From Escherichia coli (GTDB lineage: Bacteria > Pseudomonadota > Gammaproteobacteria > Enterobacterales > Enterobacteriaceae), in NCBI RefSeq assembly GCF_041886205.1, contig NZ_CP169029.1: a DNA stretch of 64,000 bases; one strand, given 5' to 3'. Shown here piece by piece: positions 55,195-55,373 of this stretch (the first letter of the stretch is position 1; each line of letters begins with the position of its first letter). The translations under genes and the position numbers were made by a program. The notes under the pieces were generated by a model that was not told the DNA's origin, did no database searches, and saw only the letters and a program-made list of their open reading frames with translations.

Positions 55195-55281
55195 ATGACT
55201 CACATCGTTCGCTTTATCGGTCTACTACTACTAAACGCATCTTCTTTGCGCGGTAGACGAGTGAGCGGCATCCAGCATTAA
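55195..55281 (+). CDS. leuL: leu operon leader peptide (28 aa, four consecutive Leu codons)
   Basis: Translation [28 protein letters not shown] with CTA CTA CTA CTA (rare Leu codons) as control codons. Confidence 0.92.
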
Positions 55282-55305
55282 GCCAGCACGCAGTCAAACA
55301 AAAAA

Positions 55306-55330
55306 CCCGCGCCATTGCGCGGGTTTTTTT
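55306..55330 (+). terminator. leu attenuator (rho-independent terminator)
   Basis: Stem cccgcgc/gcgcggg with loop catt followed by ttttttt, 25 nt after the leuL stop and 44 nt before leuA. Confidence 0.88.
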
Positions 55331-55373
55331 ATGCCCGAAGCGAGGCGCTCTAAAAGAGACAAGGACCCAAACC

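Follow-up and report, generated by a model that had tools for sequence, protein, structure and literature searches.

A stretch of 64,000 nucleotides of Escherichia coli DNA (hereafter the window) contains a short open reading frame with a run of leucine codons, followed by a G+C-rich hairpin and then by leuA, and the locus raises the question of whether these parts act together as a leucine sensor. The preliminary description, made from the letters alone, had read them as the textbook architecture of ribosome-mediated attenuation at the leu operon. The pairings that we derived, the Rfam assignment, the genome annotation and the identity with K-12 all support this reading, and we conclude, with a probability of about 0.97, that the element is the ribosome-mediated transcription attenuator of the E. 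coli leuLABCD operon. The coordinates of its parts are collected in Table 1.

Table 1. Features of the leu leader region in window coordinates
Feature	Position	Strand	Details and basis
leu promoter (putative)	55132-55160	+	-35 TTGACA 55132-55137, 17-nt spacer, -10 TAACTC 55155-55160
Transcription start of the leader RNA	55168	+	published K-12 position 83735 mapped onto the identical sequence
Candidate Shine-Dalgarno GGAG of leuL	55183-55186	+	sequence
leuL leader peptide ORF	55195-55281	+	ATG read and parsed at 55195; 28 aa + TAA (55279-55281); sequence and annotation
Region 1, 5' strand of the anti-antiterminator ('protector') hairpin	55220-55239	+	MFE and local folds; 55220-55226 overlaps Leu codons 1-2, plus the ACGC-side stem 55236-55239
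Leucine control codons (sensor), CTA x4	55222-55233	+	LeuL Leu10-13 by ORF translation; sequence, codon statistics, published pausing
Region 2, switch strand UGCGCGGUAGAC	55247-55258	+	pairs with region 1, or with region 3 through GCGCGG 55248-55253
Region 3, terminator 5' arm AAAAAACCCGCGC	55300-55312	+	CCGCGC 55307-55312 doubles as the antiterminator 3' strand; folding
Region 4, terminator 3' arm GCGCGGGUUUUUU and U7 tract (55324-55330)	55317-55330	+	folding
leuA ribosome-binding region, putative AAGGA 55361-55365, and ATG 55374	55361-55376	+	sequence

The leader frame has the properties expected of a sensor: it is short and translatable, it has its own candidate ribosome-binding site with 8 nt between the GGAG and the leuL ATG, it lies upstream of a biosynthetic operon, and its tandem control codons match the amino acid of that operon. 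As the preliminary description had stated, leuL encodes 28 amino acids and its four adjacent leucines are all specified by CTA. The codon was also rightly called rare, since it accounts for only 3.7% of the leucine codons in the 34 long open reading frames of the window. With this codon usage, the probability that four leucines in a row would all be encoded by CTA is about 2e-6, and the CTA tetrad in leuL is the only one on either strand of the 64-kb window. A 113-aa open reading frame on the minus strand (55214-55555), overlapping both leuL and leuA, was rejected as a mechanical call that is unannotated in any genome.

An intrinsic terminator separates the leader frame from the first structural gene. 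Its G+C core is formed by CCCGCGC (55306-55312) and GCGCGGG (55317-55323) with the loop CATT; together with an A-U extension the stem comprises 13 bp (55300-55312/55317-55329, -20.2 kcal/mol), and it is followed by a run of 7 T. The U7 terminator and the leuA gene after it were found as previously described, with the leuA ATG 43 nt past the U-run. The terminator had been placed 25 nt past the leuL stop codon; the terminator itself stands but the distance does not, as it is 24 nt to the G+C core and 18 nt to the extended stem. The segment 55296-55334 is nearly symmetric (A6-stem-loop-stem-T7) and has the form of an intrinsic terminator in the minus-strand direction too. A simple consensus scanner did not report the attenuator terminator on the plus strand, which we did not take as absence, because the A6/U6 extension of the stem, the result of this same symmetry, leaves too few T beyond the stem. 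The one nearby site that the scanner did report (minus strand, 55380-55364) has 6 pairs, 3 of them G-C, and was discarded as chance level (0.8 expected).

The putative leu promoter combines a perfect -35 hexamer with a weak -10 hexamer that matches the consensus at 2 of 6 positions, and because of the latter the consensus promoter and terminator scanner did not report it; again this was not taken as absence. A SMRT-Cappable-seq preprint reported a transcription start upstream of leuL at K-12 position 83735. This position maps to 55168 in the window (the K-12 leuL ATG at 83708 being window 55195), 7 nt past the TAACTC hexamer, and the position of the putative promoter fits the published start. 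From this start to the end of the U-run, the leader RNA is about 163 nt long. The preliminary description had given the element as 55195-55373, from the ORF through the base before leuA. These limits hold for the part from the ORF to leuA but omit the 5' part of the leader, that is, the transcription start and the GGAG.

We then examined how the leader RNA might fold. The leader had an MFE of -56.8 kcal/mol compared to -38.2 +/- 3.9 kcal/mol for dinucleotide shuffles (z = -4.75), and 0 of 200 shuffles folded as well. In the 1:2 hairpin, regions 1 and 2 were predicted to pair through 55220-55226/55252-55258 and 55236-55239/55247-55250, and this anti-antiterminator pairing overlaps the control codons. 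In the antiterminator, the GCGCGG of region 2 pairs instead with the CCGCGC of region 3, and the resulting helix and the terminator are mutually exclusive. Region 2, UUGCGCGGUAG, closely resembles region 4, UUGCGCGGGUU, which is expected if the two compete for region 3.

The dependence of these structures on the ribosome was evaluated in ViennaRNA by folding the nascent RNA to 55316, in the terminator loop, with the ribosome footprint masked as a constraint (-15/+12 nt around the A-site codon, or an alternative with a longer trailing edge, -18). The use of nascent-transcript folds in place of equilibrium folds of the full leader is a model choice, not a measurement. Without a ribosome the nascent RNA folded into a long irregular hairpin with the Leu-codon strand paired at its tip and the terminator 5' arm unpaired, and the terminator was predicted to form once its 3' arm had been made. 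The penalty on the antiterminator was 9.2 kcal/mol in this ribosome-free state and 3.1 kcal/mol when the ribosome was placed at the stop codon. With the ribosome at Leu1-2 under -15/+12, or at Leu1-3 under -18, the MFE structure of the nascent RNA switched to 55248-55253:55307-55312, and the antiterminator was favored by 1.8-3.7 kcal/mol at Leu1-2. At Leu3-4 under -15/+12 the antiterminator was not the MFE structure but nearly isoenergetic with it (0.1-0.8 kcal/mol), and the outcome depends on the trailing edge of the footprint. In the MFE series of the growing transcript, the 1:2 hairpin formed before region 3 existed. The preliminary description had staked its reading on a mutually exclusive antiterminator that involves the Leu-codon region and had proposed that the leader be folded; constrained folding recovered such a pairing, and both the terminator and the antiterminator were found as alternative structures that depend on ribosome position.

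When the full leader was folded at equilibrium, the terminator fold always won by about 16 kcal/mol, even with the ribosome on the Leu codons (for example, -40.8 compared to -24.9 kcal/mol with the ribosome at Leu1), and therefore the switch must be kinetic. It is accepted for attenuators in general that the antiterminator forms first and that the switch is a kinetic one. The static ViennaRNA model ignores the bulk of the ribosome and its release, and it separates the leucine-replete state poorly.

A comparison with other enterobacterial leu leaders, also proposed in the preliminary description, showed that architecture and pairing are kept in most of them. The loci were retrieved, from one genome per species, with a degenerate DNA pattern covering leuA codons 1-10, so that their choice did not depend on the leader. 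At least 120 Enterobacterales loci were listed, and 116 had enough upstream DNA. Among the loci listed, a leader ORF was present in all 116 informative ones, and at least three consecutive Leu codons together with a CCCGCGC...GCGCGGG terminator were present in 114 of the 116, representing about 50 genera. Across these 114 listed leaders the ORF has 23-28 codons, the Leu run 3-4 codons and the T-run 7-9 nucleotides, and in most the ORF starts 170-200 nt before leuA. The control codons were CTA in 86% (113 Enterobacterales leaders besides that of the E. coli window). Masked folding without a ribosome left the terminator 5' arm free in 98/114 species, while a ribosome on a Leu codon resulted in pairing of the arm with upstream sequence in 104/114, mostly with a segment 14-19 nt past the Leu run. 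The arm was free in 58/114 species with the ribosome at the stop codon, which reflects a weakness of the static model and was not counted as support. Taken together, an E. coli-like switch is predicted in about 100 of the 114 Enterobacterales leaders.

The conservation of the individual pairings was determined from a MAFFT alignment of 112 distinct leaders with 58% mean column identity; neither the alignment nor the codon tally includes one metagenome-bin locus whose leader ORF is aberrant. GCGCGG in region 2, CCCGCG in region 3 and CGCG in region 4 were invariant in 112/112 aligned leaders, and the invariance of GCGCGG extends to the third position of its Arg codon, CGC, where a change would be synonymous. 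Over the 112 sequences, the antiterminator core helix was paired in 100% of the cells and, being invariant, shows no covariation. The terminator helix was 95.5% paired, and its core is likewise invariant and without covariation. Such invariance of three mutually complementary strands is expected under a three-way pairing constraint, in which any change needs two simultaneous compensations. The local 1:2 hairpin (96% paired) carries compensatory changes, with one pair being UA in 56 and CG in 39 sequences (compensatory UA/CG changes in 42 sequences at one pair), and the small inner antiterminator hairpin (84.5% paired) has changes on both sides. The outer 'protector' helices of E. coli were paired in 49-68% and are lineage-specific or misaligned.

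Some lineages differ in their leucine codons. Two Rosenbergiella loci, two Budvicia loci and Hafnia paralvei use CTC or CTC/CTT as control codons, and the CTC-using lineages keep the same GCGCGG/CCCGCGC switch; the CTC codons may reflect a different sensitive tRNA-Leu isoacceptor or a different codon usage. In the alignment, the commonest arrangement outside Escherichia, Citrobacter, Klebsiella and Enterobacter is R-L-L-G-L-L-L, not four leucines in a row. Two reduced-genome endosymbionts, Ca. Steffania adelgidicola (1.37 Mb) and Sodalis sp. Ffu (1.38 Mb), have decayed leader ORFs with two CTA codons only (..QLLSL.. and ..FLLRP.., respectively) and have lost the GCGCGG of region 2. The terminator stem of the Sodalis locus is also decayed (CCCGCACCCTGCCGGG). 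The attenuator appears to be eroding in both endosymbionts.

These data bear on the possibility that the hairpin is no more than a constitutive terminator or a structural element, with the LLLL frame next to it by coincidence and no sensing involved. That the terminator fold always wins at equilibrium agrees with such a reading, and a complementary 6-mer is only modestly improbable, as GCGCGG occurred in 374 of 20000 shuffles of 55234-55299. However, there is no convergent or upstream gene to terminate, leuO being divergent, and four CTA codons in a row are highly improbable, as calculated above. In 114 of the 116 loci listed, the ORF and the Leu run are preserved at a fixed distance from GCGCGG while the flanks vary, and three reports (bioRxiv 10.1101/2021.05.27.446073, PMC1183508 and PMC2836559) describe regulation that is altered by codon replacement and responds to leucine. 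We therefore regard a plain terminator as extremely improbable.

The comparison is equally informative on whether LeuL might function as a small regulatory protein, with the peptide rather than the act of translation being selected. The length of the peptide is kept at 23-28 aa and its 'RG' motif is near universal, as would be expected of a functional product. But 'RG' is encoded by the invariant GCGCGG, with the synonymous sites fixed as well (nearly all leaders have CGC, and most have GGT), indicating selection on the RNA. Moreover, GCGCGG is read in another frame in two lineages (CAA or CAV), and the remaining LeuL residues vary freely. A functional LeuL peptide is thus scarcely credible, and we return to attenuation by a translating ribosome.

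The identity of the element was further established from Rfam and from other E. coli genomes. The leader matched RF00512 (Leu_leader) at 55181-55330 on the plus strand, over model positions 1-148/148, with 145.8 bits and E = 7e-33 (gathering score 50). The RF00512 consensus shows the 1:2 structure and the terminator, as here, but not the antiterminator, which was derived in the present analysis. Of 5426 complete E. coli genomes, 5399 contain a single match to a 301-nt query with the element at an identity of at least 95%, and in those 5399 genomes the annotation reads 'leuL: leu operon leader peptide' and 'leuA: 2-isopropylmalate synthase'. In a record 100% identical over the 301 nt, the gene order is cra, ilvIH, leuO (divergent), leuL, leuA, leuB, leuC, leuD, setA. 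The leuL gene of K-12 MG1655 is b0075 (83622-83708), and a gapped alignment showed that window 55124-55597, comprising the promoter, the leader, the terminator and the first 224 nt of leuA, is identical to K-12 MG1655. The K-12 attenuator is therefore the same base for base, with the same gene order ilvIH-leuO / leuLABCD. In view of the K-12 identity, the Rfam match and the RefSeq annotation, the element in the window is the attenuator that has been characterized experimentally.

The window strain differs from K-12 only upstream of 55124: the same alignment revealed 22 substitutions and a 1-nt deletion at 54890/54891, all within 54404-55123, a segment comprising the beginning of leuO and the intergenic region between leuO and leuL. 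This AT-rich region carries the control of leuO and of the leu promoter in K-12, and the strain variation might affect that control rather than attenuation. The mechanical leuO ORF (53592-54620, minus strand) has 342 aa from the first in-frame ATG, compared to 945 nt and 314 aa for the annotated LeuO; the longer form is artefactual and arises because the first start codon was taken. Other Rfam matches above the gathering score in the window were SgrS (61310-61536, minus strand, 232.9 bits), tp2 (15890-16003, plus strand), STnc40 (27875-27944, minus strand), two copies of naRNA4 (27278-27355 and 27395-27471, minus strand) and, at 33591-33680 on the minus strand, a chromosomal match to 'PssrA', an sRNA family that is plasmid-encoded in Shigella.

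Given the sequence identity with K-12 at this element, the experiments published on that strain apply to the window. With the CUA-reading tRNA impaired, ribosome profiling revealed that ribosomes pause at the four leuL CUA codons, and in the same study the RNA-seq density from leuL to leuA in K-12 dropped 29-fold in the control and 4-fold under pausing (bioRxiv 10.1101/2021.05.27.446073). A leuL-leuA'-nLuc reporter was induced 11.5-fold, and only 2.7-fold when CUA was replaced by UUA (bioRxiv 10.1101/2021.05.27.446073). An E. coli LeuL-GFP fusion was repressed by leucine but not by glycine (PMC2836559). In Salmonella, changing CUA to CUG in the leader lowered its sensitivity (Carter, Bartkus and Calvo 1986, as related in PMC1183508). 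Stalling, the antiterminator and read-through are described as the mechanism in PMC5314783 and PMC3783181, which cite Wessler and Calvo 1981. Leucine-specific repression, pausing at CUA, codon-dependent read-through and the drop in RNA are thus taken from the literature on the identical sequence, whereas the anatomy, the three alternative pairings, the ribosome dependence in the static model, the conservation and the K-12 identity were obtained in the present analysis.

The Rfam result and these experiments also bear on whether read-through might be set by a leucine- or tRNA-binding RNA (a riboswitch or a T-box-like element) or by an RNA-binding protein, in place of a translating ribosome. The leader is highly structured, as such a sensor would be, and in Firmicutes there are leucine and branched-chain genes that T-boxes control. 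T-boxes are also mentioned in the leader literature (PMC5314783/PMC3783181). Against this, the Rfam scan of the region and the whole window assigned Leu_leader, and no riboswitch or T-box family, to the leader region, and the start codon with its GGAG and the open frame through the Leu run are conserved. In addition, synonymous codon changes cut induction, which is not predicted by ligand or protein binding, and ribosomes were seen to pause on the CUA codons (bioRxiv 10.1101/2021.05.27.446073). We give hardly any weight to a sensor that works without the ribosome.

Ribosome-mediated attenuation at this locus would proceed as follows. RNA polymerase would start at 55168 and make the leader of about 163 nt while a ribosome translates leuL. 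If charged tRNA-Leu that reads CUA is plentiful, the ribosome would clear the CUA codons and reach the stop codon, and region 2 would re-pair with region 1 or be covered by the ribosome. Region 3 would then be free until region 4 is made, and the 13-bp terminator with U7 would stop transcription at about 55330, before leuA. If leucine is scarce, the ribosome would stall on the CUA codons and mask region 1, and GCGCGG in region 2 would pair with CCGCGC in region 3 as the latter emerges; the terminator hairpin would then come too late and the polymerase would continue into leuABCD. Without translation, the 1:2 structure would form and termination would be the default. The kinetic order of these events is inferred, as is a polymerase pause that would synchronize polymerase and ribosome.

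The element can be compared with several known systems. The leu leader of Salmonella typhimurium is alike in architecture, and there the rare CUA control codons were shown to set the sensitivity; PMC1183508 gives three CUA codons compared to four in E. coli, while the S. enterica subsp. arizonae locus among our loci has four CTA. The leu leader is the standard example of control by a rare codon, whereas the thr leader uses a major codon (PMC1183508). The trp, his, thr, pheA and ilvGMEDA attenuators follow the same logic (leader ORF, cognate codons, 1:2/2:3/3:4 pairings, intrinsic terminator), but they sense another amino acid and are unrelated in sequence. The Vibrio cholerae LeuL and the Streptococcus leuA leader also have an upstream ORF rich in Leu codons followed by a terminator. 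The former is repressible by leucine, and its 20-residue ORF contains two groups of three Leu codons each (PMC2836559), and the latter lacks significant sequence similarity (PMC5314783/PMC3783181).

The SMRT-Cappable-seq preprint reported a further transcription start, 'downstream of the leader peptide', at K-12 position 83581, that would bypass the attenuator. This position corresponds to window 55322, within the 3' arm of the terminator (55317-55329), and inspection by eye revealed no convincing sigma-70 hexamers upstream of 55322. A start site independent of attenuation within the attenuator terminator is, in our view, unlikely. If it is real, a basal leuABCD transcript would bypass leucine sensing, and an additional constraint at the DNA level might contribute to keeping CCCGCGC/GCGCGGG invariant. 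A role in trans for the terminated leader transcript, which is abundant and might serve as a small RNA, is a weaker possibility than the internal start.

The leu attenuator is already known in full, and the current understanding of it is unchanged by our analysis. It serves here as a positive control, in which a textbook element was recognized from raw sequence with its coordinates and mechanism correct. For the family, the results highlight that the three pairing strands, GCGCGG, CCCGCG(C) and (G)CGCGGG, are frozen across about 50 genera of Enterobacterales, and that the 'Arg-Gly' of LeuL is conserved because it is encoded by the invariant GCGCGG of the RNA switch.
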